DNA of 51,497 nt from NCBI GenBank assembly GCA_016214605.1, contig JACROD010000014.1, forward strand, positions 107,074 to 158,570. The letters run 5' to 3'. The position numbers and the translations under genes were made by a program. Under the pieces are notes generated by a model, which ran no database searches, had not been told where the DNA came from, and worked only from the letters and a program-made list of their open reading frames with translations. The DNA is from Candidatus Kaiserbacteria bacterium (GTDB lineage: Bacteria; Patescibacteriota; Minisyncoccia; Phycocordibacterales; UBA2100). Shown piece after piece: positions 1,583 through 49,920 of this stretch (the stretch's first letter is position 1; each line of letters begins with the position of its first letter).

Positions 1583-3334
1583 ATGAACACAGCTCAAGAT
1601 ATCAAACAGGCTATTGCTCGGGCGTTAGAGAACGTTGGTATTCCGACTGCGTCAGAGTCGATAATGTTGGAACATCCCGCAGAGCTTTCACGCGGGGATT
1701 ATGCGACTAATGTCGCTATGCAAGCTTTCGGTCGTATCGCCAAATCGCAAAATCAGTATCATAAAGATGATACTACGGTTCCAAAAATAAAGACTGGAAA
1801 TTTCGTTTTGGACGGGTTTAAGAATCCAGAACAACTTGCTGAGAAGCTAGTTGCTACTATGGGAAATATCGAAGGAGTTTCAAGTATCGTTGCAGTTAAA
1901 CCGGGCTTCATCAATTTCACCCTTGCATCGCAAACGATCGCCGCATCGCTCGACTCTGCGCGCACGCAGGATATGTGGGGGAATAATGAGATGCGTGCTG
2001 GGCAGAAGATAATGGTCGAGTATACACAGCCAAACCCTTTCAAAGAATTTCACATCGGACATCTCATGGGCAATGTCAACGGTGAATCGATCGCGCGACT
2101 CATGCAATACGTTGGCGCCGAGGTCCTTCGAGTGAATTACCAAGGCGATGTGGGTGTGCATGTGGCATGTGCCATTTGGGGTATCAAGAAGCTCGATATT
2201 GATCCATCGACAGCAGATGAATTTGGCCAGGCATACAGCACAGGAGCAATGGCATATAAGGCGGATCCACAAGCAAAAAATGAAATCGATGAAATCAATA
2301 AAAAAGTTTACGATCGAAGCGATCCGGAAATTAATACTCTCTACGATGCCGGGCGAAAAAAATCACTTGAAGCGTTTGAAAGAATCTATGTGATTCTCGG
2401 GACGACATTCGATCATTATTTCTTTGAAAGTGAGACAGGTCCTATTGGCAAGGAGATCGTGCTCGCGCACCCCGACATCTTTCCCGAATCCGATGGTGCC
2501 CGTATCTTCCGCGGTGAAGAGTATGGACTACATACGCGCGTGTTTATCAATGCCACGGGCCTGCCCACCTACGAAGCAAAAGAAATCGGTCTCCAGCGGC
2601 TCAAAAAGGATCTCTATCCGGATACAACCCTGCTTATTATCGAAACTGCCAATGAGATTGACGAGTATTTTAAGGTGATACACAAAGTTCTTGAGCTTAT
2701 ATATCCTGATATTGCAGCCCAGATGAAGCATGTGAGTCATGGATTAATGAAACTCTCGACCGGTAAAATGAGTTCGCGCACGGGCAATGTCATCACGGGC
2801 GAATCACTTTTGAATGAGCTTGCGGAGGCCGCCAAGGCGCGCGCCGCAGAAAGTCGCGCGGATGATACGGAGAAGTTGGCCGAGCAGATCGCCGTCGCCG
2901 CCATCAAATACCAGATCCTCAAACAAGGTTCGGGCAAAGACATCGTCTTTGATCGCGAGCGAGCGCTTTCGCTCGAAGGGGATTCGGGTCCGTATTTGCA
3001 ATACGCCTACGCACGCACGAATGCGATTATCGCAAAAGCACACGAGCAGGGGATCGTGCCGATGATCGATCAGAGTGCTATGCCGAGCGAAGTCACACGA
3101 CTGATCCATCGTTTTCCCGAGATCGTGGAGCACGCTTCGCATGAGCTTGAGTCGCACATCGTGACGCAGTACCTCACACATCTCGCGAGTTCATTCAACA
3201 GCTGGTACGCGCAGGAGCAGATACTCGACGGTACGCCTGCTGCAGCGCACAAGGTCGCCATCGTCGAAGCCGTCAATCGCACACTCAAAAATGGCCTCTG
3301 GATCCTCGGCATCACTGCGCCGGAGAAGATGTAG
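1583..3334 (+). CDS. argS: Arginine--tRNA ligase
   Basis: HIGH-type motif FHIGHLMGN, KMSKS-type motif KMSSRTGN, and a C-terminal ...APEKM. The ORF opens at 1565. ATG 1583 is preferred because a tacaat -10 box lies 6 nt upstream. Confidence 0.9.
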   Translation: MNTAQDIKQAIARALENVGIPTASESIMLEHPAELSRGDYATNVAMQAFGRIAKSQNQYHKDDTTVPKIKTGNFVLDGFKNPEQLAEKLVATMGNIEGVSSIVAVKPGFINFTLASQTIAASLDSARTQDMWGNNEMRAGQKIMVEYTQPNPFKEFHIGHLMGNVNGESIARLMQYVGAEVLRVNYQGDVGVHVACAIWGIKKLDIDPSTADEFGQAYSTGAMAYKADPQAKNEIDEINKKVYDRSDPEINTLYDAGRKKSLEAFERIYVILGTTFDHYFFESETGPIGKEIVLAHPDIFPESDGARIFRGEEYGLHTRVFINATGLPTYEAKEIGLQRLKKDLYPDTTLLIIETANEIDEYFKVIHKVLELIYPDIAAQMKHVSHGLMKLSTGKMSSRTGNVITGESLLNELAEAAKARAAESRADDTEKLAEQIAVAAIKYQILKQGSGKDIVFDRERALSLEGDSGPYLQYAYARTNAIIAKAHEQGIVPMIDQSAMPSEVTRLIHRFPEIVEHASHELESHIVTQYLTHLASSFNSWYAQEQILDGTPAAAHKVAIVEAVNRTLKNGLWILGITAPEKM

Positions 3335-3421
3335 AAAAATGTCCGGAGGTACAAACAAGTGCTTGGATCGGTAAAGATCTTGTGGCATTATCATACATAG
3401 TGCAACCTATAGGAGGAGACT

Positions 3422-3775
3422 ATGCTCAGTACACTTGTTTTGTATATGCCGCCCCCCGGCAGTCCTGTAGCAGGGACCTTGTCGATCCTGATCGCGATCA
3501 CGATCGCGTTTTGGGGACCTATTCTCCTGCTTGTTCGGCGGGTCAGACATCGGCCGATCCTGATCGAGGAGGACTGGAGAAATCTTTTCCTCAAAAGACA
3601 GGAAGAATCGGGCGGGGCGATCACGTTGGATCATGTCCTGTTGGAGCGGGCACGAGGTCATCCGGATGTGATCCGGGCCATGAAAGCGCGGGATCGCGGC
3701 GGCCAAGTCTGGTTTCGCGACCGAAAGGGAAGGGTGGCCAGATTGCCTCTCGACGATCTTCGAAAGGCTGCTTGA
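3422..3775 (+). CDS. Hypothetical membrane-anchored protein (117 aa)
   Basis: aggagga SD upstream, N-terminal TM segment, shared terminator downstream. Confidence 0.5.
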   Translation: MLSTLVLYMPPPGSPVAGTLSILIAITIAFWGPILLLVRRVRHRPILIEEDWRNLFLKRQEESGGAITLDHVLLERARGHPDVIRAMKARDRGGQVWFRDRKGRVARLPLDDLRKAA

Positions 3776-3780
3776 AAACA

Positions 3781-3814
3781 AATAGGCATCCGGTGCGCCG
3801 GATGCCTATTTTCT
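3781..3814. terminator. Bidirectional intrinsic terminator between convergent genes
   Basis: Perfect hairpin aataggcatccgg tgcg ccggatgcctatt, flanked by A and T runs. Confidence 0.75.
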
Positions 3815-4100
3815 AATGGAGGACAAGCATATGTCCTATGACCTCGAATTCGCGCGGCTGGATCAAGTGTGTATGGGCGACCCGCACCTGATAGAGCGGT
3901 CCGTCGAGTGTCCGATACCAAAAGCCGAGAAATTTTCGCAGTTCCGGGAATTCCGGCGCGAAGTCGTATTCTTGCCAGATGTATGTCTGCAAGATATCTC
4001 GGTAGTCGGGTAGGCGATACACTATCTCCGCTGTCGTAAGACCATAGCCGGCGAGTATTCTTGCGAATTCCGGATCTGTCGCAGGATTCTTTTTCATCAC
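3813..4100 (-). CDS. Usg-family protein (95 aa)
   Basis: GYGLTTAEIVYRLPDYRDILQTYIWQEYDFAPEFPELRKFLGFW...VRVAH matches my memory of the Usg-like family signature. aggagg SD present. Confidence 0.55.
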   Translation of the reverse strand: MMKKNPATDPEFARILAGYGLTTAEIVYRLPDYRDILQTYIWQEYDFAPEFPELRKFLGFWYRTLDGPLYQVRVAHTHLIQPREFEVIGHMLVLH

Positions 4101-21231: not shown

Positions 21232-21798
21232 CTACACCCGCTCCGTATACTCGCCGCTCTCCGTATTGATACGGATCACATCGCCTGCTTCGATAAACAT
21301 CGGGACGGTGATCTTGGCCCCGGTCTCAAGCTCGACGAGCTTATCGCCGCCTTGGGCAGTGTTGCCGCGGGTATTTGGGGGAGCCTCGATGACCTTGAGC
21401 TCGACCTTGACCGGCATGTTGACCTGCACCGGCTCTTCGTCGAACCATCTGACGGCTACCTCGGTATTGCCCTTAAGCCACTTGCCGGAATCACCGATCA
21501 TTTCATCGGAGAGTGTGAAGCGCTTGGATTTGTCGTCGACCTCGTGGAAGACCCACTCACCGTTGCGGTGATAGACGAAGACGGCCTGACGGTTCTCCAC
21601 CTCGGCCTCTTCGACCTTGTCGGAGACGTGGAAGGTGTGTTCCATGATCGATCCGGTCCTGATATTGCGGAGTTTGGCCTGATTGACCGGCTTGCGCTGT
21701 TGTTTGCGGAAGACCCATGCGGAGACGACCTCATATGGTTCGCCGTCCATGATAATAAGCTTCTTCGGAAGCACATCGTTGTATGCAAGCATTGCCAT
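21232..21798 (-). CDS. efp: Elongation factor P
   Basis: 188 aa. ...FRKQQRKPVNQAKLRNIRTGSIMEHTF... is typical of EF-P domain I/II. Confidence 0.9.
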   Translation of the reverse strand: MAMLAYNDVLPKKLIIMDGEPYEVVSAWVFRKQQRKPVNQAKLRNIRTGSIMEHTFHVSDKVEEAEVENRQAVFVYHRNGEWVFHEVDDKSKRFTLSDEMIGDSGKWLKGNTEVAVRWFDEEPVQVNMPVKVELKVIEAPPNTRGNTAQGGDKLVELETGAKITVPMFIEAGDVIRINTESGEYTERV

Positions 21799-21857
21799 AT
21801 CGGAGGATTATAGCCGTCTAGAGGCATTTGTCCACTCTCTATACGTTATCGAGAACA

Positions 21858-22142
21858 CTACCGGAGTCTCCTGAGGATTTCTTTGTACACCACCGAACGG
21901 TGACCAATAGTGACGATTTGTACTGTTTTGCCCTGTAGTCGGTATATGACGCGATAATCCCCGACGCGCAGCTTGCGGCAGCCTTTGAGTGTGTTGCGCA
22001 ATGGCAAGCCGTACATGGTCGGGGAAGTCGTTAGTTTTGCGCGGATCGCGTCGCGGATCTTTTGTCGCCAATCAGGATCGAGCCCCGGAAGATCTTGCTT
22101 GATCACGGATGGATGAAGGGTAATGGAGTATCTTACTTCCAT
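21858..22142 (-). CDS. RelE/ParE-family toxin
   Basis: ...LRVGDYRVIYRLQGKTVQIVTIGHRSVVY is a RelE/ParE C-terminal signature. Overlaps the upstream antitoxin gene. Confidence 0.8.
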   Translation of the reverse strand: MEVRYSITLHPSVIKQDLPGLDPDWRQKIRDAIRAKLTTSPTMYGLPLRNTLKGCRKLRVGDYRVIYRLQGKTVQIVTIGHRSVVYKEILRRLR

Positions 22143-22357
22143 ATTTCATCGTGATCCCTGACCCATCGCACCTTACCCTTCAAGCGTTCGGTAGCTACTT
22201 TTTCAAAATAGGCATCTTCCTCAAGCTCAAGTGCGAGATCCAAAAGCGCGGCGGCCTTGGTAGCCTCGGGCACTTGATCGCGCTTAGCGAGGCCTGCGAG
22301 GGCCTTACGCATGTCTTTTGTGATGCTGATGTTGATACGCTCCTTGGTCGTGGCCAT
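22133..22357 (-). CDS. Ribbon-helix-helix-type antitoxin
   Basis: KERINISITKDMRKALAGLAKRD... looks like an RHH beta-strand plus helices. Start is placed at ATG 22357, which has a tacact -10 box 7 nt upstream. Confidence 0.7.
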   Translation of the reverse strand: MATTKERINISITKDMRKALAGLAKRDQVPEATKAAALLDLALELEEDAYFEKVATERLKGKVRWVRDHDEIWK

Positions 22358-22363
22358 ATCCAC

Positions 22364-22392
22364 AAGTGTATCAAAAGTGTATCACCTGTCAA
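22364..22392 (-). promoter_or_regulatory. Promoter with a tandem 10-nt operator-like direct repeat for the RHH-relE operon
   Basis: On the minus strand: ttgaca, 16-nt spacer, tacact. aagtgtatca occurs twice with an 11-nt period (22364-22373, 22375-22384), overlapping the -10 box and spacer. Confidence 0.5.
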
Positions 22393-22411
22393 ATTGATTG
22401 ATGAACACCGA

Positions 22412-22666
22412 TTATTTATGTCGATACCGATCCCAGATGCACTGGTGCATCGAGACGAAGGTCGAGGCGAGGTGCGGGCTTCGTATGATGAGCGCGTAGG
22501 GATTGCCGTGCGGCTGGATGAGGAGCACGAGGCTCTTGGTGGCGACGACAGTGGTGTCGAAGGGATACATGTGCGGGGAGAGAAGAATGGTGTCACGCAG
22601 TTGTTTCTTGTCCTCGCTCAACATGCGGCGTGTGGTCGGTGATTCTTCGGTAAGGGAAAGGATCAT
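22412..22666 (-). CDS. Hypothetical protein (about 84 aa)
   Basis: ORF only; no recognisable motif. Lies in the accessory island. Confidence 0.3.
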   Translation of the reverse strand: MILSLTEESPTTRRMLSEDKKQLRDTILLSPHMYPFDTTVVATKSLVLLIQPHGNPYALIIRSPHLASTFVSMHQCIWDRYRHK

Positions 22667-22776
22667 CTTTGATTTGATCCCGCACAACTTGACCAAGATT
22701 CAATTATATGATTAGCTCCACCAAGCGCACGAGCTTGTACGCAGTGTACAAGCGAGTGAGATAGGGAGTAGAGGTC

Positions 22777-23280
22777 ATGATTAGTGGACGGAAATTCGCG
22801 CTTTGTATGGTGTTGGTGCTGTCAGTGGGCTTCGTCGCAATCGACGGATATGTTGCGCCGTTCATGTTGAACTATGAGACGAGAATAACTAAGGATGAGA
22901 TCGTCATCGGACGTGTTGACGGGTTCGGCCAGATGACCACATATATGAGAAATTTCGTATCTGGAGATGAGAAAGTGAGAATTATGAAATTCACGTTGTT
23001 TTCTCATCGGTACCTGTCTATCGAATCTTCCGGCGCATGTCACTGCCTAACGAGTGTGTATAAAGATGACAGGGATGACGGACAATACTACTCACTGGCC
23101 CGCATGTCATGGAATGGATTGATATCGGGATTCATAGGGAGGGAACTCTCGACCACTATCATTAATGCGGGCACTGACGATCCACGCGTCAAACAAAAGC
23201 TCTTGGATGATGGAGAAGTCTTGGAAGAGACGCGCCATCGCTTCGCGGGATTGATAACGCCCTCCCCAGTCCTTGAGTGA
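22777..23280 (+). CDS. Hypothetical membrane-anchored protein (167 aa)
   Basis: gagg SD, N-terminal TM/signal anchor, terminator-like hairpin downstream. Confidence 0.5.
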   Translation: MISGRKFALCMVLVLSVGFVAIDGYVAPFMLNYETRITKDEIVIGRVDGFGQMTTYMRNFVSGDEKVRIMKFTLFSHRYLSIESSGACHCLTSVYKDDRDDGQYYSLARMSWNGLISGFIGRELSTTIINAGTDDPRVKQKLLDDGEVLEETRHRFAGLITPSPVLE

Positions 23281-23419
23281 AATCTCGAGACTTTGAGGTC
23301 AAGAAAACAAAAGTCTGGCCAACTTGCCGGACTTTCTTTTATAGTTCGCGGCCGTGAGAGATAAACAAGTTGAAGTGCAAATGTCTGTCCGTCCCCGCTG
23401 CTCCGTTCCTCACCTCACC

Positions 23420-23447
23420 TTGACAAGCATCTAAGTGTTGCTACACT
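23420..23447 (+). promoter_or_regulatory. Second copy of the TTGACAA-N5-TAAGTGTTGCTACA promoter module, firing toward the 3' end of the pemK-like gene
   Basis: ttgaca (23420-23425), 16-nt spacer, tacact (23442-23447). Followed by hairpin accgccc gcaa gggcggt (23478-23495). Confidence 0.45.
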
Positions 23448-23504
23448 AAATGGCATAAGTTGGGGAAACCCAGTGAGACCGCCCGCAAGGGCGGTTCAAA
23501 CATT

Positions 23505-23891
23505 CTATTCAGAGATGAGTTTGCAATATGAGGCGATCAACTTCCGGAGCTCATTTTCTGAAATTTGCCCCATGTGACCCAATAGTCTCTTTGTGTCCAA
23601 GGGTCTGGCCTGATTGAGAATTGCACATGAGGTGTCTCCAAAGTGTGGCAAAGGGTAGTACCAGTTACTCGATTTGCCTTTTGTGGTAAGTGGAGCGGCA
23701 AGCGCGATCTCGTGTGAGAATTTCTTGATGATGAGGACGGGGCGAATATATCCTGTTGTGCCTCCGTCCTGTTCGACACCGATGTTCAGCCCGATCCTAC
23801 ACCAGTACACCTCTCCCGGTTTGATAGGGGCACGATTACCTTGGTCAGTTTTCTTTTTAATCTCATTCCATGCGTCAAAATCTTTTTCCAT
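23505..23891 (-). CDS. PemK/MazF-family toxin (no adjacent antitoxin gene)
   Basis: PIKPGEVYWCRIGLNIGVEQDG...RPVLII...LNQARPLDTKRL is a typical MazF/PemK SH3-like barrel signature. Confidence 0.75.
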   Translation of the reverse strand: MEKDFDAWNEIKKKTDQGNRAPIKPGEVYWCRIGLNIGVEQDGGTTGYIRPVLIIKKFSHEIALAAPLTTKGKSSNWYYPLPHFGDTSCAILNQARPLDTKRLLGHMGQISENELRKLIASYCKLISE

Positions 23892-23909
23892 ACGACCCCT
23901 TCTTTTTCT

Positions 23910-24067
23910 TTATTCCTCCTCGCTCTCACCACCACCGCTCTTCGCCTTGCCGATGACACCACCACCGTCGTGGAGGGCTTTGCGGATGTTTTTCAATAGT
24001 TCGTTGAGTATAGGCTTGTTGGTATGCAGGTATGTGCGCGCCGCATCGTAGCCGCGGCCGAGCTTGG
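23910..24067 (-). pseudogene. recA: Detached duplicate of the recA 3' end (last ~52 codons, no 5' part)
   Basis: 23940-24067 equals 25054-25181 except for one synonymous position. The tail would read ...GKAKSGGGESEEE*. Confidence 0.9.
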
Positions 24068-24098
24068 AGTGCCTTGCGAACAACAACAACCGAGTGAG

Positions 24099-24995
24099 TT
24101 ACAATTCTTCGCGACTATCCCCAGTGTCATCATCACTATATACGTCTCGTCGAATATTGAATATCGTTTTAGGATCAAGAAGCGGTAGTGCTTGGGGTGC
24201 ACCCAGCAGTTTGCGGATGCGGATCGTAGAGAACTCGGGCTCATCGGGAATAACGGCATTATCAAACCCGTTGGCGCTGTACTGTACTTCGAGTACATCA
24301 TGATACTTTTCTCGGAGCATTTGTCCCCACACGTCAAGGACATGGTTGAGATCTACGGGTATTTGGATAAGCATCAAGCCTCCTTCCCGCAGTAATCCAT
24401 ACCATTCTTGAACAACGTTCGCGAGCATGTATGGTTCCTCAGGAAATAGGTCGAGACCACCTGCCATTCTTTCGACAATCAAATCTGCTTGTTCGGCTGA
24501 GAGCCATTCTTTTACCTGTGCGACGGTATCACGTGATGTTACATCGCCCTCAAGTATCGAATGATGCATCTGCGCGTCGTTGCTACCGTTTATGTTTGTT
24601 GCAGAGCGACGAAAGTCTGTAAGAGTAATACCTATAGATTTTTTGAAAAAACCAGGTGTAAATTCTCGGAAGAATCGGGTGCCGACCCCGCCTAATTCGA
24701 TGCCTATTGCTTTTCCCTGATGCGCGGCGAGTGTTGTTTCTATGTATGTCTTCAGGGAAGTTTCTTTATCGGGCAAAATACTACGAAAGGTATCGAGAAA
24801 GGAGCCACGCAGATTCAGATTTCCATCTTTATCCACACCAGACTCATCAATTCCAGAGTCGACCCAATTGTAATATTCACCAGCGGTACCTTCTCGATTG
24901 TTTGTCTGCTGTATTGCCGTAAAGATTTTCTCCGTTATTTGACGCAAACCTCGTCGTTCTGTGCCCATCGGAAAATGTTTTTTATGTTCAAACAT
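24099..24995 (-). CDS. Putative class I SAM-dependent methyltransferase (298 aa)
   Basis: Motif I-like AIGIELGGVGTRF and a later EGGLMLIQIP. No closer family recognised. Confidence 0.55.
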   Translation of the reverse strand: MFEHKKHFPMGTERRGLRQITEKIFTAIQQTNNREGTAGEYYNWVDSGIDESGVDKDGNLNLRGSFLDTFRSILPDKETSLKTYIETTLAAHQGKAIGIELGGVGTRFFREFTPGFFKKSIGITLTDFRRSATNINGSNDAQMHHSILEGDVTSRDTVAQVKEWLSAEQADLIVERMAGGLDLFPEEPYMLANVVQEWYGLLREGGLMLIQIPVDLNHVLDVWGQMLREKYHDVLEVQYSANGFDNAVIPDEPEFSTIRIRKLLGAPQALPLLDPKTIFNIRRDVYSDDDTGDSREEL

Positions 24996-25026
24996 ATTTA
25001 TCCACTATAACATGTGAGGTGGGACG

Positions 25027-26106
25027 TTATTCCTCGCTCTCACTGCCGCCAGCCTTCGCCTTGCCGATGACACCACCACCGTCATGGAGGGCTTTGCGGA
25101 TGTTTTTCAATAGTTCGTTGAGTATAGGCTTGTTGGTATGCAGGTATGTGCGCGCCGCATCGTAGCCGCGGCCGAGCTTGGTCTCGCCTATCGAGTAGGC
25201 ACCGCCGGAGGACTTTTGCACGAATCCAAGCCGCTCGCCGAGCGCGAGTGCTTCGCCCTCACGCGAGATGCCTTCGCCGTACATCATGTCGAATTCGGTC
25301 TGGCGGAATGGTGCGGCGACTTTGTTCTTGACGATCTTCACACGGTGGCGGCCACCCATGACCTCGTCGCCCTTCTTGATCTGGGCGATGCGGCGGATAT
25401 CGATGCGCACTGATGTGTAGAATTTGAGCGCCTTGCCTCCTGGGGTGGTTTCCGGATTCCCAAACATGACGCCAATCTGCATGCGGATCTGGTTGATGAA
25501 TATGACCACGGTCTTGGTCTTGGCGCAGATGGCGGTGAGCTTGCGCAGGGCCTGGCTCATCAGGCGTGCTTGTTTGCCCACATGCGACTGGCCCATGTCG
25601 CCTTCGATTTCATCCTTGGGAGTGAGTGCGGCGACCGAGTCGACGACGATCACATCGATCTTGCCGGAGCGCACGAGGCTCTCGACGATCTCGAGCGCCT
25701 GCTCGCCGGTATCAGGCTGGGAGACAAGGAGACTGTTGATATCGACACCGATCTTCTTGGCGTATTCGGGGTCGAGCGCATGCTCCGCGTCGATAAAGGC
25801 ACAGATACCGCCTTTCTTCTGGGCTTCGGCGATGACGTGGAGGGAGAGGGTGGTCTTGCCGGATGATTCGGGGCCGAATATTTCGATGATGCGGCCGCGC
25901 GGGACGCCGCCGATACCGAGTGCCCAATCGATGCCAATCGAGCCCGAGGGGATCGCGTCCACGTCCACCTTGGGCGAGGCACCGAGCATCATGATCGACT
26001 CATCGCCGAATTTGGTCTTGATCTCCGCGAGAGCGCGCTCGATGTCTTTGTCTGTGCCGGTGCCTGTCTGCTTCGGCGGAGCCTTTACCTTTTTTGTCAT
26101 TGCCAT
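25027..26106 (-). CDS. recA: Recombinase RecA
   Basis: [13 protein letters not shown] Walker A, ...[22 protein letters not shown]... 359 aa. Confidence 0.97.
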
Positions 26107-43036: not shown

Positions 43037-44616
43037 GGTGAGGGGAGTGAAATAGAACTGAAACCGTGCGCCTACAAGGAGTCGGAGCGGGCATTTATGT
43101 CCGTCACGGCGTGCCTATTGAAGAATGAGCCAACGAGTTGATGCGTACGGCGCGGCTAAGCCCTTTCGGGTGGAGCCATAGCGAAAGCGAGTGTGAATAG
43201 CGCGTTTGTCGTACGTATCAGACCCGAAGCCAGGTGAGCTACCCATGAGCAGGATGAAGTTTGTAGAGATACAGATGGAGGTCCGAACCCATAGATTGTG
43301 CAACATCTCGGGATGACTTGTGGGTTGGAGTGAAAAGCTTATCGAACCTGGTAATAGCTGGTTCTCTCCGAAAGAGCTTTCGGGCTTGCGTCGTGCGTTC
43401 CCTCTGGGGGTAGAGCACTGGAAGGTGTCGATAGGTCGCAAGACCACGACTCCTATCAAACTCCGAATACCAGAGGCCAGAGCACGGCAGTTAGACTACG
43501 GGGGCGAAGCTCCGTTGGTCAAAAGGGAAACAGCCCTAGATCGCCAGTTAAGGTCCCAAAATATATGCTAAGTGAACTTAAGGAGGTGAGATTTCTTAGA
43601 CAGTGAGGAGGTTGGCTTAGAAGCAGCCATCCTTTAAAGAAAGCGTAACAGCTCACTCACTCAGAGATCTTGCGCCACAAATGATCGGGTCTAAGCATAT
43701 TACCGAAGCTGCGGATTCGTGTACTTCATTGAGGATACAACTTCGATTGTATTCTCAATGAAGTACACGAGTGGTAGGAGAGCGTTCTGCACTGCGATGA
43801 AGTCCAAGGGGTGACCCACGATGGAGCGTGTAGAAGTGAAAATGTTGGCACGAGTAACCGCAATGCGAGTGAGATTCTCGCACGCCGAAAGAACAAGGTT
43901 TCCTTCGCAATGGAGATCATCGAAGGGTTAGTCGGGCCTAAGCCGATGGCGAACGCCGGAGGCGATGGACACATGGTTAATATTCCATGACCCGGCACTG
44001 ATGCGATGGAGGGACGGAATGCTGTACTGTACGCCCATTATTGGATTTGAGGTTCATGCCGTGAGGACTAGCGATAGGAAAATCCGTCGCGATATGTCCG
44101 AGCGGAGTGGAAATGAGGAGGCCTCGGCCGAATCAGATGTACAGGAGCGCGTTTTCAAGAAAAACTTCTAAGCATAATCAGTGTTGGACCGTACCGCAAA
44201 CCGACACAGGTGTTCAGGGCGAGTAGCCCAAGGCGAACGAGTGAGAGGTCCCCAAGGAACTCGGCAAAAAAGCGACCGTAACTTCGGGATAAGGTCTGCT
44301 CCTCTTTGAGGAGCCGCAGCTAAAGTTTCCCAACCAACTGTTTACCAAAAACACAGCTCCCTGCAAACTCGTAAGAGGAAGTATAGGGGGTGATGCCTGA
44401 CCAATGCCGGAAGGTCAAGTATGGGGGGTGTGCGCATCACATTGCATGTGATATGAGTTCACAGAAAACAGTTTACAGTTTACAGAAAATGCGACATCGC
44501 ATCCTTCTGTTTACTGTACACTGTCAACTGTAAACTACATCGCGCGCAGCGTGATGTGCATGCTGATCTATATAAGCCCCGGTCAATGTCGGCGATAACT
44601 ATAATCGTCCTAAGGT

Positions 44617-45179
44617 TCTGCTTCTCTCGCAAGAGGGAAGTGGAAGGACTGGGACGATTACCAGTTAGTAAAATTGGTACACAATACAAAATACCTAAAG
44701 TTGCCTCGTCACGCAGTAATGCATGACTGGTCCTAGAAAATAATACATGGCTATATGCTGGGAAGTTTGCGAAAGCAAACGATCAGCAGGGAAGACTCGG
44801 TACCACTTTGTCCTCAACGAAAAGTGGAGATAAGCATCATGAAAGTGCAGATAGGTTCGTCCAGCTCTGTCGAAATGACGTCTGATGAAGCAGCGCATGC
44901 AATGAAGGAGCATTTCGCAGCGCATGGAGTAATCCTCGAATACGTACGCATCGACGAAGATGGAGAAGTCCAATTCAAGATGCCCACGGGTTTCAAGGTT
45001 GTTCTTCGGCCAGGATTCGGCGGAGAGCACGAAATTCTATTGTGCTAGATAGAAAGTTCTTTAGTTTCAATATCTCCGGACATTGAGGCTAAAGTGGTGC
45101 CGAGAACCCTCAGAGACTACACGCCGTGCTCCCACGAAAGTGGGATGAAGATATAGTCCAAGACTTTAAAGGAGGTCAG
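44617..45179 (+). mobile_element. Group I intron at the 23S L1931-equivalent site
   Basis: Exon sequence ...cgtcctaaggt | agcgaaattccttgtc... is contiguous in E. coli. The 5' exon ends in U and the intron ends in G. Core motif gaagatatagtcc is present. Helix 44796-44809/45091-45104 closes the ORF loop. Confidence 0.8.
44839..45048 (+). CDS. Intron-encoded small ORF (69 aa) without a recognisable homing-endonuclease motif
   Basis: ggag lies 8 nt upstream of the ATG. MKVQIGSSSSVEMTSDEAAHAMKEHFAAHGVILEYVRIDEDGEVQFKMPTGFKVVLRPGFGGEHEILLC. Sits in a peripheral loop of the intron. Confidence 0.35.
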   Translation: MKVQIGSSSSVEMTSDEAAHAMKEHFAAHGVILEYVRIDEDGEVQFKMPTGFKVVLRPGFGGEHEILLC

Positions 45180-45902
45180 AGCGAAATTCCTTGTCTGGTA
45201 AGTTCAGACGCGCACGAATGGTATAATGAGTTGGGAACTGTCTCGGGGACTTGCTCGGTGAAAATACAAGGGCGGTGAAGATGCCGCCTTCCTGCAGCTA
45301 GACGAAAAGACCCCAGAAGCTTTACTGCAGCTTGATATTGGGGATACGGGTGCGATGCGTAGCATAGATGGGAGACTTTGAAGCCATGGCTTTGGTTGTG
45401 GTGGAGTCGCCAGTGCAATACCATCCTTCGTTTCTGTATCTTCTAACTTCTAGGGAGAAACCCTAGAAAGACAGTATCTGGTGGGCAGTTTGGGTGGGGC
45501 GCTCTCCTCCTAAAAAGTAACGGAGGAGCCTAAAGGTCAGCTAGGCGCGAATGGAAACCGTGCCGATAGTGTAATGGCACAAGCTGGCTTAACTGCGAGG
45601 CGTACTTGCCGAGCAGGCGCGAAAGCGGAGCATAGTGAACCGACCATTCGCATTAGATGCGGTGGAAGATTATCGGACAAAAGTTACTCTGGGGATAACA
45701 GGCTGGTTTCGCCTAAGAGTCCAAATCGACGGCGAAGTTCGGCACCTCGATGTCGGCTCATCTTATCCTGGGGCTGGAGAAGGTCCCAAGGGTTTGGCTG
45801 TTCGCCAATTAAAAAGGTACGTGAGCTGGGTTCAAACCGTCGTGAGACAGGTTGGTCTTAATCTGCTGCAGGCGTTGATTCTTGAGGAGATTTGTTTCTA
45901 GT

Positions 45903-46690
45903 AAAGTATTGCTACTTCAGGGAGAGATCCCTGATGACAATGCGGCTTATAACGGTGAAGTCTAATTCGCTTCCGATCCGAGAGTTTTATGCACGCTGGT
46001 CCGTGGCATAGAGCTCGCTTGAGGACCGGGTAAGTGATATGATAATACCGTGGGAAGTCGATCTAATGTTGATACAGCTTACATCGCGGGATTTCTTGAT
46101 GGTGATGGCAGTGTGATGTTGCAAGTAAAGTTGCGAGCCGACACAAAACGCGGCGCGCGATTTATGGCAACCATCTGCTTCTATCAGGATACCCGCCATG
46201 AGAAACCTCTCTTGTGGATACACAAACAATTGAAAGTCGGTTATGTCTCGCGTAGAAACGACGGCATGACCGAGCTGAGGATCAATGGATTCGCTCAAGT
46301 GCGGGAAATTCTTTCCGAACTAAAGCCATTCATCCGATTCAAAGCCAAGCAAACGGACGCGCTTATCAAAGCGTGTGCCTTGCTTGAAAGTAAATCAATC
46401 AGTTTGTTGTCAAAACAAGAGCTTCGGAAATTGGTAGATCTCGTCTTCGTGATACGAAACGAGAATTATGCAAGCCGAAGTACAGTGACTAAAGAAGAGT
46501 TGGATACAAGATTAGGTTTGACCCCGTAACGACTGTACACTCAGTGTACGACTCATGTGTAGAGGAATCAGTTCTTGCAACTGACTGCTCATATGGGTAA
46601 GATGCCGCGATCCTAATCCGCACAATCAGTTTTTGTTGCGCGGAAAGGATCAAGATATAGTCTGCGCTCCATGAAAGTGGGGAATGTGCG
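45903..46690 (+). mobile_element. Group I intron inside the sarcin-ricin loop of 23S rRNA
   Basis: Exons read ...gtttctagt | acgagaggaccgaaat..., i.e. AGU|ACGAGAGGACC. The 5' exon ends in U and the intron ends in G (46690). Core motif aagatatagtc at 46652-46662. Confidence 0.8.
46050..46529 (+). CDS. LAGLIDADG homing endonuclease, single-motif (homodimer-type), intron-encoded
   Basis: YIAGFLDGDGSVML motif near the N-terminus. 159 aa. GTG start. Confidence 0.85.
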   Translation: MGSRSNVDTAYIAGFLDGDGSVMLQVKLRADTKRGARFMATICFYQDTRHEKPLLWIHKQLKVGYVSRRNDGMTELRINGFAQVREILSELKPFIRFKAKQTDALIKACALLESKSISLLSKQELRKLVDLVFVIRNENYASRSTVTKEELDTRLGLTP

Positions 46691-47051: not shown

Positions 47052-47160
47052 GTGTTGGTGCTTCGTCGGAGGGGGTACACCCGTTCTCATTCCGAACACG
47101 GCAGTTAAGCCCTCCAGAGCCGATGGTAGTCGCAAGGCAAGAGTAGGTAGGCGCCAACAC
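47052..47160 (+). rRNA. rrf: 5S ribosomal RNA
   Basis: Helix I gtgttggtgc/gcgccaacac, ...ccgttctcattccgaacacggcagttaagc..., ...ccgatggtagt... Flanked by the processing stem gagctctctg/cagagagctc. Confidence 0.93.
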
Positions 47161-48052: not shown

Positions 48053-49207
48053 ATGGTCTCGCGTCTTGCCAAAAGTACCGCCTCATCCGCTCGATGGTTC
48101 CTCCATATCGATTGGTTCCTTTTTGGTGCGGCGTTCGTCATTTCTATTCTCGGGCTGATGACCATGCGTTCGTTCTCAGTCGAGAATTCTTTTTTCGATA
48201 AACAGCTCATCTGGATCGCTTTGGCAGTCGGCCTGTTCTTTGTCGTGAGTTTTGGGGACTACGGCTTCTTGCGTCGCACGAGGATCATTGTAAGTCTCTA
48301 TATGGTGGTGCTCGCACTGCTCATGCTCATCTTTGCCTTTGGGGCGATCGTGAAGGGCTCTCAAAATCGTTTCGATCTCGGATTCTTTGCGGTACAACCG
48401 TCCGACCCCGCCAAGCTCATACTCGTCGCCCTGCTCGCCAAATATTTCGCGCGCCGTCATATCGAGATCGCTCATATCCGGCATATCCTCGTCTCGGGCG
48501 TGTATGCCTTTGCGGTATTCGCACTTGTTTTTCTTCAGCCGGATTTTGGGTCCGGCATCATCATTGCTTCCATATGGCTTGGCATGGTCTTGGTCGCCGG
48601 AATCTCCTGGCGGCATTTGGCAGTGCTCGGGATCACCGCCACGATCGTGCTCACGGGCCTTTGGCAATTCGCTCTACACCCGTATCAGAAACAGCGTGTG
48701 CTCACCTTCATACATCCGCTTGCCGATATTCGTGGGGCAGGGTACAACGCCTACCAATCGACGATCGCGGTCGGATCGGGCGAGGTCTTGGGCAAGGGAG
48801 TCGGCTACGGCACGCAGTCCAAGCTCCAATTCTTGCCCGAGTATCAGACCGACTTCATCTTTGCGGCATATGCCGAGGAGTGGGGTTTTGCGGGTGTGAT
48901 ACTGCTCCTCGGGCTTTTTTTCGTCTTGGTCGTGCGGATACTTCTTATCGCCGCGCATGGGCGGGACAATTTTGACACGCTTTTTGCCGCAGGTATCGCG
49001 ATCTACTTCGCAGCGCAGTTCATGGTGCATGTGGGTATGAATATCGGCCTCATGCCGATCACGGGGACGACCCTACCTTTCATGAGCTATGGCGGTTCGC
49101 ATCTGCTTACCGAATACTTGGCACTCGGCATGCTCATGAGTCTCCGCCGCCACGCCCGCCCCGCGCTCGGGGTGCGGGATAATACCGAGCTGGTGGGGGC
49201 GTTATAG
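48053..49207 (+). CDS. SEDS-family peptidoglycan polymerase (RodA/FtsW)
   Basis: About 10 TM segments. ...QSKLQFLPEYQTDFIFAAYAEEWGF... and ...LPFMSYGGSHLL... are SEDS signatures. Confidence 0.9.
   Translation: MVSRLAKSTASSARWFLHIDWFLFGAAFVISILGLMTMRSFSVENSFFDKQLIWIALAVGLFFVVSFGDYGFLRRTRIIVSLYMVVLALLMLIFAFGAIVKGSQNRFDLGFFAVQPSDPAKLILVALLAKYFARRHIEIAHIRHILVSGVYAFAVFALVFLQPDFGSGIIIASIWLGMVLVAGISWRHLAVLGITATIVLTGLWQFALHPYQKQRVLTFIHPLADIRGAGYNAYQSTIAVGSGEVLGKGVGYGTQSKLQFLPEYQTDFIFAAYAEEWGFAGVILLLGLFFVLVVRILLIAAHGRDNFDTLFAAGIAIYFAAQFMVHVGMNIGLMPITGTTLPFMSYGGSHLLTEYLALGMLMSLRRHARPALGVRDNTELVGAL
49172..49207 (+). repeat. Direct repeat copy 1: the last 11 codons plus stop of rodA/ftsW
   Basis: gtgcgggataataccgagctggtgggggcgttatag encodes VRDNTELVGAL*. 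Confidence 0.9.
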
Positions 49208-49247: not shown

Positions 49248-49277
49248 TTGACGAGTTTATGCAAAAGTATATACTTT
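49248..49277 (+). promoter_or_regulatory. Promoter plus palindromic operator of the dinJ-yafQ-like operon
   Basis: ttgacg (49248-49253), 16-nt spacer, tatact (49270-49275). Perfect palindrome aaagtat|atacttt (49264-49277). The ATG lies 7 nt after the -10 box. Confidence 0.5.
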
Positions 49278-49282
49278 GGTAT

Positions 49283-49558
49283 ATGAACACGAAGACAACC
49301 ATTCTTATCAAGACTGATAAAAAGATCAAAGTTGCCGCACAAAAGGCAGCAAAGGACATCGGCATACCCTTGAGCACGGTGTTGGGAATGTACTTGCGTA
49401 AATTCGCCCATGAGCGCCGCATCGAATTTGAAGCGTCCTTGGTACCGAATGCAAAAACAATCCAAGCAATTAAAAAATCGCAAAAGGAATATGAGCGCGG
49501 CGGATATACAGGGCCGTTCTCCAATCTCGAAGATCTCCACAAGGCCCTTAGTACATAA
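49283..49558 (+). CDS. RelB/DinJ-family antitoxin
   Basis: TTILIKTDKKIKVAAQKAAKDIGIPLSTVLGMYLRKFAHE is an RHH-type DinJ pattern. The ORF opens at 49259; the leaderless ATG 49283 is preferred. Confidence 0.7.
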   Translation: MNTKTTILIKTDKKIKVAAQKAAKDIGIPLSTVLGMYLRKFAHERRIEFEASLVPNAKTIQAIKKSQKEYERGGYTGPFSNLEDLHKALST

Positions 49559-49561
49559 GGT

Positions 49562-49825
49562 ATGCAATTCGTTTTCTCACGCCTTTACAAGAGGCAATTC
49601 AAGAAGCTACCCCTTGATTTGCAAGTGAAAGTGATGATACGGCTCGATCTTTTTATGCAAGACGAGACGCATCCACTGCTTGATAATCACCAACTCCGTT
49701 TTGAATGGCAAGGATATCGAAGTATGAATATTACCGGTGATTATCGTGTGATATTCAAGAAAGAATCAGATGATATGGTACGTCTGGAACAAGTCGGTAC
49801 GCATCATGAATTGTATGGATCGTAA
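49562..49825 (+). CDS. RelE/YafQ-family mRNA interferase toxin
   Basis: FKKLPLDLQ...PLLDNHQLRFEWQGYRSMNITGDYRVIFKKESDDMVRLEQVGTHHELYG. Confidence 0.8.
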   Translation: MQFVFSRLYKRQFKKLPLDLQVKVMIRLDLFMQDETHPLLDNHQLRFEWQGYRSMNITGDYRVIFKKESDDMVRLEQVGTHHELYGS

Positions 49826-49884
49826 GGTTGGTGTTTGCAAAACCTCATTCAACTGTATAGCCCCACGATTCGTTCGATCATTGG

Positions 49885-49920
49885 GTAAGGGATAATACCG
49901 AGCTCGTGGGGGCGCTGTAA
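49885..49920 (+). repeat. Direct repeat copy 2: a detached, synonymously diverged copy of the rodA/ftsW 3' end
   Basis: gtaagggataataccgagctcgtgggggcgctgtaa also encodes VRDNTELVGAL*. It differs from copy 1 only at synonymous positions and in the stop codon. Confidence 0.9.

Follow-up and report, generated by a model that had tools for sequence, protein, structure and literature searches.

Detached, allele-like copies of conserved gene tails bracket small accessory cassettes in a Kaiserbacteria genome

Insertion with long target duplication (Nobusato et al. 2000; Furuta, Abe & Kobayashi 2010) has been described mostly in naturally competent species, and its mechanism is unknown (PMC2853133). 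Here we describe a related arrangement in a stretch of 51,497 nucleotides (51 kb; 'the window') from a Candidatus Kaiserbacteria bacterium, in which the 3' tails of recA, rplL and rodA/ftsW each recur downstream, in register with a stop codon, on the far side of a small insert. Genomes of Patescibacteria, the group to which this organism belongs, are very small and densely packed with genes, and little is understood of how they acquire accessory DNA. The signature is real and recurrent, and is best filed as a variant of insertion with long target duplication, that is, as integrase-less cassettes flanked by repeats resembling attachment (att) sites. It is distinguished by in-register, allele-like copies of essential-gene tails, and by its occurrence in Patescibacteria. 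If true, a recurrent integrase-free route would give these genomes plasticity without classical mobile-element machinery, and would insert small genes, toxin-antitoxin modules among them, immediately after essential genes without disrupting the latter. The allele-like second tails would mean that the cargo arrived together with the tail of an orthologous gene, and would thus provide evidence on a class that was described in 2000 and whose mechanism was still unknown in 2010. Detached in-register gene tails would also be a simple signature for recently acquired DNA in uncultivated genomes.

Other described systems share parts of this pattern. Decayed integrative and conjugative or integrative and mobilizable elements (ICEs and IMEs), among them the cis-mobilizable elements (CIMEs), lie at rplL and similar 3' ends between att-like repeats that contain the last codons and the stop and restore the gene (PMC9815147, PMC5704250). 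As here, the integrase is absent from the element, and rplL is a target in both. Campbell-type insertion-duplication and homology-facilitated illegitimate recombination resemble the present case in relying on host recombination at a single anchor, which is duplicated, with no enzyme supplied by the element; in Escherichia coli, a single crossover of circularised DNA gives 109–950-bp duplications of the homologous locus (PMC3240628). Finally, the minimal mobile elements of Neisseria are small cassettes between conserved housekeeping genes (here recA and efp) with no mobility genes; unlike the present inserts, they have two-sided flanking homology, leave no duplicated tail and are exchanged by transformation (PMC3787668).

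A repeat search of the window returned one long direct repeat, 23917–24067 against 25031–25181 (151 nt, 95% identity). The second copy is the last 151 nt of an intact recA gene on the minus strand (25027–26106, 359 aa; Pfam RecA, 4e-138, plus RecA_C). The first belongs to a detached tail of 50 codons and a stop (23910–24067, minus strand), which lies 1,114 nt downstream of the attached copy and has no recA sequence upstream of it. The first-pass annotation, made from the DNA letters and their open reading frames (ORFs), had reported a 128-nt repeat with one synonymous His difference and a divergent end of about 30 nt, and both the repeat search and the alignment bear this out. The 128-nt core (23940–24067 and 25054–25181) is 99% identical, its single mismatch being a synonymous CAT/CAC change, and the longest exact run in the repeat is 97 nt. 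Over the final ~30 nt the copies differ, the detached one ending in GKAKSGGGESEEE before its stop and the attached one in a different peptide (12 residues, not shown). The 5' edge is abrupt, since past 24067/25181 the identity drops to a random 25% and the best local alignment scores within shuffled controls. On the same figures we rejected a longer recA homology 5' of the detached copy, suspected by eye from an S-x-G-[DE]-x-K remnant.

Between the two recA tails the sole credible ORF is 24099–24995 (minus strand, 298 aa), in agreement with the first-pass annotation, which had named it as the only gene there. It starts 28 nt past the recA stop on the same strand, and has a GC content of 45% against 58–61% for recA. 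A low-GC gene lying between an intact and a detached recA tail is also in keeping with the earlier proposal of a cassette at the recA 3' end with a second tail. No terminator-like site was found on the minus strand between recA and the PemK gene that follows the detached tail, so that the 298-aa gene is probably co-transcribed with recA. Since the 128-nt direct repeats are near-identical, precise RecA-dependent loss of the cassette should be possible; the insertion would be either recent or held in place by selection.

The same footprint had been suspected at rplL and rodA, and both cases proved real, though short. At rplL (39459–39822, plus strand; Pfam Ribosomal_L12), the attached tail at 39795–39822, which encodes GGKVTLK and the stop with 4 nt beyond, recurs at 39961–39988 with 25 of 28 positions identical. 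The detached tail keeps its stop, and its two coding differences, GGT/GGC (Gly) and ACG/ACA (Thr; attached/detached), are both synonymous. The 138 nt between the copies (39823–39960, plus strand) are non-coding and consist of two hairpin units of ~62 nt. A strong hairpin terminator, native to rplL (~40013–40046), comes after the detached tail. At rodA/ftsW (48053–49207, plus strand, with the attached tail at 49170–49207; Pfam FTSW_RODA_SPOVE, 6e-89), the repeat runs from 49170 to 49206 and from 49883 to 49919 (32/37 identical). The detached tail (49883–49920, plus strand) encodes VRDNTELVGAL and a stop, identical in protein to the attached one despite four synonymous changes (GTG/GTA, V; CGG/AGG, R; CTG/CTC, L; TTA/CTG, L) and a TAG-to-TAA stop swap. 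Here the cargo (49283–49825, plus strand) is a type II toxin-antitoxin pair, consisting of a RelB-like antitoxin at 49283–49558 (Pfam RelB, 2.7e-9; 37 bits, cut-off 22) and a YafQ/RelE-like toxin at 49562–49825 (YafQ_toxin, 1e-8; 36 bits, cut-off 30).

When all ORF tails of the window were compared with the sequence downstream of them, only recA, rplL and rodA were returned, the other rows being mechanical ORFs inside the recA repeat. At a strict threshold (24 nt, at most 4 mismatches), control scans of the window in the upstream and reverse-complement directions gave no independent match, and by our own estimate about 0.02 chance matches are expected. We then searched about 1.8 Mb of fetched loci. 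In L037, a 45-nt tail of efp recurs 686 nt downstream around a 159-aa ORF, with GCG/GCC and TAG/TAA differences. In three independent assemblies (L171, L172 and L173), a 30-nt copy of the tail of a redoxin gene brackets an AAA_18 kinase gene and a PemK gene, and the PemK of L171 is 83% identical to that of the window. In L175, a 102-nt copy of the rarA/mgsA tail brackets an ORF and a RelB/YafQ pair; this YafQ toxin and that of the window are 83% identical. The rarA copies differ by nine synonymous and two conservative changes and a TAG/TGA swap; at 14% divergence they are still coding-like, and an intrinsic terminator follows the detached tail. In 460 kb of non-Patescibacterial loci, matches had neither an in-register stop nor homology ending at the stop.

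Several further candidates among the fetched loci were set aside. The L034 match, read on the wrong strand, reflects a repeat within a surface protein, those in L040 and L025 are paralogues or domain repeats, and that in L042 is AT-rich, low-complexity sequence. In L133 the copy has GCAA where the native tail has the stop GTAA, leaving no in-register stop, and the candidates in L060, L071, L072, L124 and L131 lack an in-register stop and show non-synonymous differences.

No enzyme that could account for these insertions was found beside them. Pfam scans of about 40 window ORFs returned no integrase, transposase or reverse transcriptase, in line with the earlier remark that no integrase is visible in the window; the ORFs scanned otherwise include housekeeping genes. 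Likewise, the brackets of L037, L171 and L175 contained no recombinase domain. A diversity-generating retroelement was also discarded, because the window holds no reverse transcriptase and because the differences between copies are synonymous, of several kinds and not confined to adenines. A search for a shared recombination motif at the six cargo-to-tail junctions gave chance 7-mers only.

Nearly all differences between attached and detached tails are silent. Pooled over the six footprints (recA, rplL, rodA, efp, the redoxin gene and rarA), 20 codon differences are synonymous and 3 non-synonymous, where a synonymous fraction of 0.23 would be expected (binomial P = 1.4e-10). The detached copy has an in-register stop in every one of the six, exchanged for another stop codon in three, and in all six the homology ends at the stop codon (plus 0–4 nt). 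Silent-biased differences in a tail that is not translated where it now lies argue that one of the copies served, until recently, as the functional end of an orthologous gene. Across the six footprints, this is strong evidence, from the sequences compared, that the two copies are orthologous alleles and not a resident tail with a decaying local duplicate. The first-pass annotation had suspected a foreign allele at recA; with one synonymous change and a low-complexity end, recA by itself gives weak grounds for this, and it is the six cases together that make it convincing. Additionally, in the recA, efp and redoxin repeats the upstream part is identical and the differences cluster beside the stop codon, a distribution that fits a crossover inside the repeat.

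These detached copies also keep what appears to be native downstream context, namely the rplL terminator, the rarA terminator and, 18 nt after the recA tail, the PemK gene. The simplest reading is that the incoming DNA had the form tail'–stop–cargo and entered upstream of the resident tail. The cargo has a lower GC content than the host gene.

Related cargo recurs behind different genes. PemK genes lie behind recA or the redoxin gene, and RelB/YafQ pairs behind rodA, behind rarA, at a site without a repeat (L176) or, in L181, between direct repeats of another kind. In each comparison the DNA homology is limited to the cassette: between the window and L175 or L176 it covers 49265–49828 only, and between the window PemK region and L171 or L168 it covers 23885–23437 only, which is the gene and the 50–70 nt after it. 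Thus the cargo families are not tied to one target gene, and DNA homology is confined to the cassettes. Repeats of 37–102 nt flank the RelB/YafQ pair in three of four contexts (the window, L175 and L181, not L176), and flanking repeats are present at PemK in one of four, whereas recA-centred scans gave a single footprint in ~1.25 Mb of Patescibacterial loci; this association between footprints and addictive cargo is notable, though the comparison is biased by the choice of loci.

The L181 case differs from the others. Its RelB/YafQ cassette, with a toxin 78% identical to the window's, lies between 59-nt direct repeats (429–487 and 1102–1160, 88% identical). These correspond to the promoter and 5' region of a downstream gene of 422 aa and not to a gene tail, so that the insertion process is not strictly limited to gene ends.

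Set beside insertion with long target duplication, the footprints have in common small inserts of selfish genes, no integrase or transposase, and direct repeats of tens to hundreds of bp. In both, the repeat can overlap the 3' end of a gene and the insert differs in GC content from its surroundings (it is lower in one Haemophilus influenzae case). The repeats of that class are single-copy at the empty site, as the recA tail is in the 46 Patescibacterial relatives scanned. Repeats of more than 30 bp, as required for the class, are present at recA (151 nt), rarA (102 nt), efp (45 nt) and rodA (37 nt), with rplL (28 nt) falling just below. Unlike in that class, the copies here differ by synonymous-biased, allele-like changes amounting to as much as 14%; the six tail repeats without exception end at the stop of a conserved housekeeping gene; and the cargo is a toxin-antitoxin pair, a solitary toxin, a methyltransferase-fold gene or non-coding DNA, in a Patescibacterial host.

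We tentatively favour the view that the footprints record the insertion, without an integrase, of small foreign cassettes that were anchored through homology to a conserved gene tail. DNA from a related lineage would have carried, in this order, an orthologous gene tail, its stop codon and the cargo. Host RecA would have mediated its recombination with the resident gene at the conserved 3' coding region, probably after natural DNA uptake; natural competence has been reported in Patescibacteria (Saccharibacteria; PMC10633639). The far end of the incoming DNA would then have been rejoined upstream of the resident stop codon, either through a Campbell-type event (single-crossover or 'ends-in') involving an A-B-A fragment, circular or permuted, or through one-ended homologous recombination followed by an illegitimate join. 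The product would read gene, incoming tail, stop, cargo, resident tail, stop and original downstream context, with the gene intact and the displaced tail still followed by its terminator or by its partner in the operon. The copies would cease to be homologous at the stop because conservation between lineages ends there, and toxin or toxin-antitoxin cargo may stabilise a repeat structure otherwise prone to deletion.

Such tail-anchored insertion predicts allelic copies with a stop-codon boundary and a sharp upstream edge, resident context following the detached copy, and an absence of enzyme genes. The structure of the footprints, their recurrence, their allele-like copies and the absence of mobility genes are all seen in the data. 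The route of recombination, the direction of transfer and the role of competence are what we would add to them. To our knowledge, no natural, recurrent Campbell-type insertion that uses gene tails of 28–151 nt has been described; the known Campbell-type and illegitimate events are mainly laboratory outcomes, with anchors of at least 100 bp.

Several points weigh against tail-anchored insertion. The mismatched repeats of rplL (28 nt) and rodA (37 nt) offer too little length for RecA to cross over efficiently inside them, and would need a crossover further upstream together with an illegitimate join, or else another mechanism. We found no donor arrangement: the three contexts examined for homologues of the 298-aa protein (P0001, P0003 and P0006) all differ, lying beside pheS, beside trmD and elsewhere, and none adjoins recA. 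Nor did we find a same-species empty site that would tell resident and incoming copies apart. Exact-protein look-ups of the 298-aa protein, RplL and RecA in search of same-species or empty-site genomes gave nothing, the best matches being 86% amino-acid identity to RecA (genome contigs) and 82% identity to the tail (metagenome contigs). The footprints are also unevenly distributed, with one in ~1.25 Mb of Patescibacterial loci in recA-centred scans and three in these 51 kb, an imbalance that a general mechanism does not explain. Finally, repeats ending at the stop also occur at true integrase att sites, such as the rplL att of Streptococcus suis (PMC9815147).

This last point leads to the alternative that fares best, which we regard as possible but doubtful, namely that the footprints are remnants of site-specific integrative elements. 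The tails would then be attL and attR, with attP restoring the 3' end of the target, and the integrase would have been deleted or would act in trans, as in CIMEs. Gene-restoring direct repeats of a 3' end are what classically marks att sites, and recA, rplL and rodA, with repeats of 151, 28 and 37 nt, are all intact. The rplL 3' end is a documented integrase target, at which S. suis ICEs use the 15-bp att TTATTTAAGAGTAAC, and CIMEs are by definition decayed, att-flanked elements that have lost their integrase (PMC9815147). By our own reading, TTATTTAAGAGTAAC is the reverse complement of the codons for VTLK and the stop, the same C-terminal peptide as in the window rplL repeat. Since an integrated attP tail is translated, the att model also predicts synonymous-biased differences, and toxin-antitoxin modules are typical survivors of decayed elements.

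Against this, no recombinase is present in any of the six brackets or was found elsewhere in the window, so that all six elements must have lost their integrase, and the inserts are only 0.14–1.9 kb, 10–100 times smaller than those of CIMEs and other decayed integrative elements. Three unrelated targets within 51 kb would need three different integrases. Likewise, related cargo (PemK, RelB/YafQ) at different targets across genomes would require elements of different specificity, and is a point of difference from CIMEs and other decayed elements. No related integrase-bearing element is known, or was found, for the recA, rplL or rodA sites, and no recA-tail-flanked insertion occurred in the 46 Patescibacterial relatives scanned. 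Furthermore, the junctions between cargo and tail have no motif in common, the cargo has no relatives on viral contigs, and cargo and att do not recur together at the same target: homologues of PemK, RelB/YafQ and the 298-aa protein all lie at other loci.

A bolder form of homology-anchored insertion seems to us unlikely. The A-B-A units might be mobile cassettes that move without an integrase and find their 'address' through homology, with the duplicated tail of a conserved essential gene serving as a portable RecA-dependent recombination site. Recombination between the copies would release a circle with one tail and the cargo. That circle, or a permuted linear fragment, could be taken up by a related cell and re-insert at the orthologous gene tail by a single-crossover or ends-in event, which would regenerate the bracket and rewrite the gene's last codons with the element's allele. 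If true, this would account for a travelling tail that stays competent for coding and for the over-representation of toxin-antitoxin cargo, which would stabilise the unit, and would explain how insertion with long target duplication, a long-standing puzzle, comes about.

We consider it decidedly improbable that the resident target was truly duplicated at insertion, as in strict long target duplication, by a break- or replication-dependent process linked to selfish cargo, with later divergence of the two copies where they lie. Published cases of this class involve restriction-modification systems and orphan methyltransferases, have repeats of 30–420 bp and lack mobility genes (PMC2853133). Its predictions agree with the 99% identity of the recA copies over 128 nt, and with the three of four RelB/YafQ contexts that are repeat-flanked, one of them duplicating a promoter region. 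However, an unselected detached copy should show ~23% synonymous changes and not the 20 of 23 observed, with stops preserved; the L175 copies are still coding-like at 14% divergence; and true duplication gives no reason for the homology to end at a stop codon in six of six cases.

An assembly artefact, whether two strain haplotypes placed in series or chimeric joins in a metagenome contig, is very unlikely. In its favour, the 158.6-kb Patescibacterial contig is of metagenome type, co-assembled strains would yield allele-like differences, and the density of footprints, three in this contig and about one per Mb elsewhere, could be a peculiarity of assembly. Against it, a serial-haplotype error would carry more of the gene, and the sequence 5' of the detached copies is not gene-like (25% identity at recA, a hairpin element at rplL, non-rodA sequence at rodA), every bracket holds a complete, coherent cassette, and footprints of this type also occur in the three independent redoxin-gene assemblies and in the unrelated metagenome-assembled genomes (MAGs) or contigs L037 and L175.

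The cargo protein at recA had been described as methyltransferase-like, and this holds at the level of fold and not of curated-family membership. The 298-aa protein gave no match in Pfam, PDB sequences, PADLOC or PHROGs, and Pfam returned nothing for nine of the ten members of its family either. Among 5.8 billion proteins we found only nine homologues, at 33–48% identity and mostly on short contigs; judged by the one named homologue, which is so annotated, they are apparently Patescibacterial. The family alignment contains an invariant AIGIE[FL]GGxG motif, with E100, G102, G103 and G105 all invariant. An AlphaFold model built on this alignment (predicted local distance difference test, pLDDT, 81; predicted template-modelling score, pTM, 0.84) has seven strands in beta-alpha-beta order, with the glycine-rich motif placed as motif I of the class I S-adenosylmethionine (SAM)-dependent methyltransferases. 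A Foldseek search of the model against the PDB gave 314 matches at E <= 1e-3, of which the best-ranked 50 are nearly all methyltransferases or SAM-fold relatives. The top matches are Spb1/FtsJ, COMT, TTHA1280, MnmM and spermidine/spermine synthases (E ~1e-6, query-normalised TM 0.35–0.42). These results support a predicted class I SAM-methyltransferase fold. The structures closest to it are methyltransferases acting on RNA or small molecules; a restriction partner is absent, and no DPPY-type motif was seen by eye in the family alignment. A search of the cargo for defence or phage annotation returned nothing except the MazF-like match, and no relatives of the cargo were found on viral contigs.

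The PemK/MazF-like toxin gene at 23505–23891 (minus strand; Pfam PemK, 2e-9, 38 bits, cut-off 23) starts 18 nt past the detached recA stop, an operon-like spacing. It had been called an orphan toxin; indeed it has no partner, and its homologues, which follow a variety of genes, are likewise solitary. It belongs to older accessory DNA outside the recA bracket. The gene order common to about 40 relatives is orf254 (minus strand), ftsK, orf172, recA, efp and, further on, ssb (minus strand). The closest RecA proteins, at 83–86% identity, belong to Patescibacterial MAGs of Nomurabacteria, Kaiserbacteria and Parcubacteria type. In the window, efp (21232–21798, minus strand), a conserved recA neighbour by tblastn synteny over about 45 relatives, is separated from recA by 3.2 kb, which holds the 298-aa gene, the detached tail, PemK, a 167-aa ORF and a ParE-like toxin with its antitoxin. 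Since efp follows recA after 48 nt (L002) and 98 nt (L003) in the closest relatives, 21799–25026 can be taken as an accessory block, and its GC content is 45–50% against the 58–61% of recA. The gap is 13–26 nt in several other relatives, and a second recA tail is absent from all 46 Patescibacterial relatives scanned. Larger recA-efp gaps in distant relatives are mostly a conserved two-gene unit on the opposite strand and not cargo, which limits any claim of a recA-efp 'hotspot' to the closest relatives. An older, third recA tail between PemK and efp, which would have pointed to stacked insertions, was looked for and gave no score above shuffles.

Within the same block, 21858–22363 and 22777–23280 comprise the ParE-like toxin with its 76-aa antitoxin and the 167-aa ORF on the opposite strand, with no flanking repeat. 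PemK genes in other loci have features of their own. A leader, TATACTnnnnnnGTATGAGGGGTCATGC, is common to PemK and an unrelated NYN-domain gene (L171, 3036–3072 and 4072–4107; L168, 6019–6054) and resembles a portable promoter and ribosome-binding-site module; at the window PemK, the detached recA tail replaces the promoter part. In L170, a direct repeat of 378 nt (97.6% identity; 712–1088 and 1210–1585) lies immediately 5' of the PemK homologue. A distant PemK (34% identical) occurs in L081 at 2659–3830, 2 nt past a short pheS (244 aa) and before a DUF5680 gene and pheT. The contig also holds the closest homologue of the 298-aa protein, and no tail repeat was detected at that PemK.

The two hairpin units of the rplL insert are arranged in tandem, each of the form CCAACGCTC...TGCCGG-nnn-CAGTAG-nnn-CCGGCC, and their stems show compensatory changes. 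Against Rfam the insert had no significant match (the sole one scored 19 bits, against a gathering score of 88), and no further copies were found in the 181 fetched loci or the rest of the window.

The window also contains ribosomal RNA sequence, while no tRNA or 16S rRNA gene was found in it. A 23S rRNA match spans 42406–45932 and, at 3,527 nt against a model of 2,925 nt, includes ~600 nt of insertions; a 5S rRNA follows 1.1 kb on, at 47054–47159. Just 5' of the 23S rRNA are two copies of a 36-nt palindromic element, AACCCCGC...GCGGGG (42230–42265 and 42344–42379), which are 86% identical and lie 114 nt apart.

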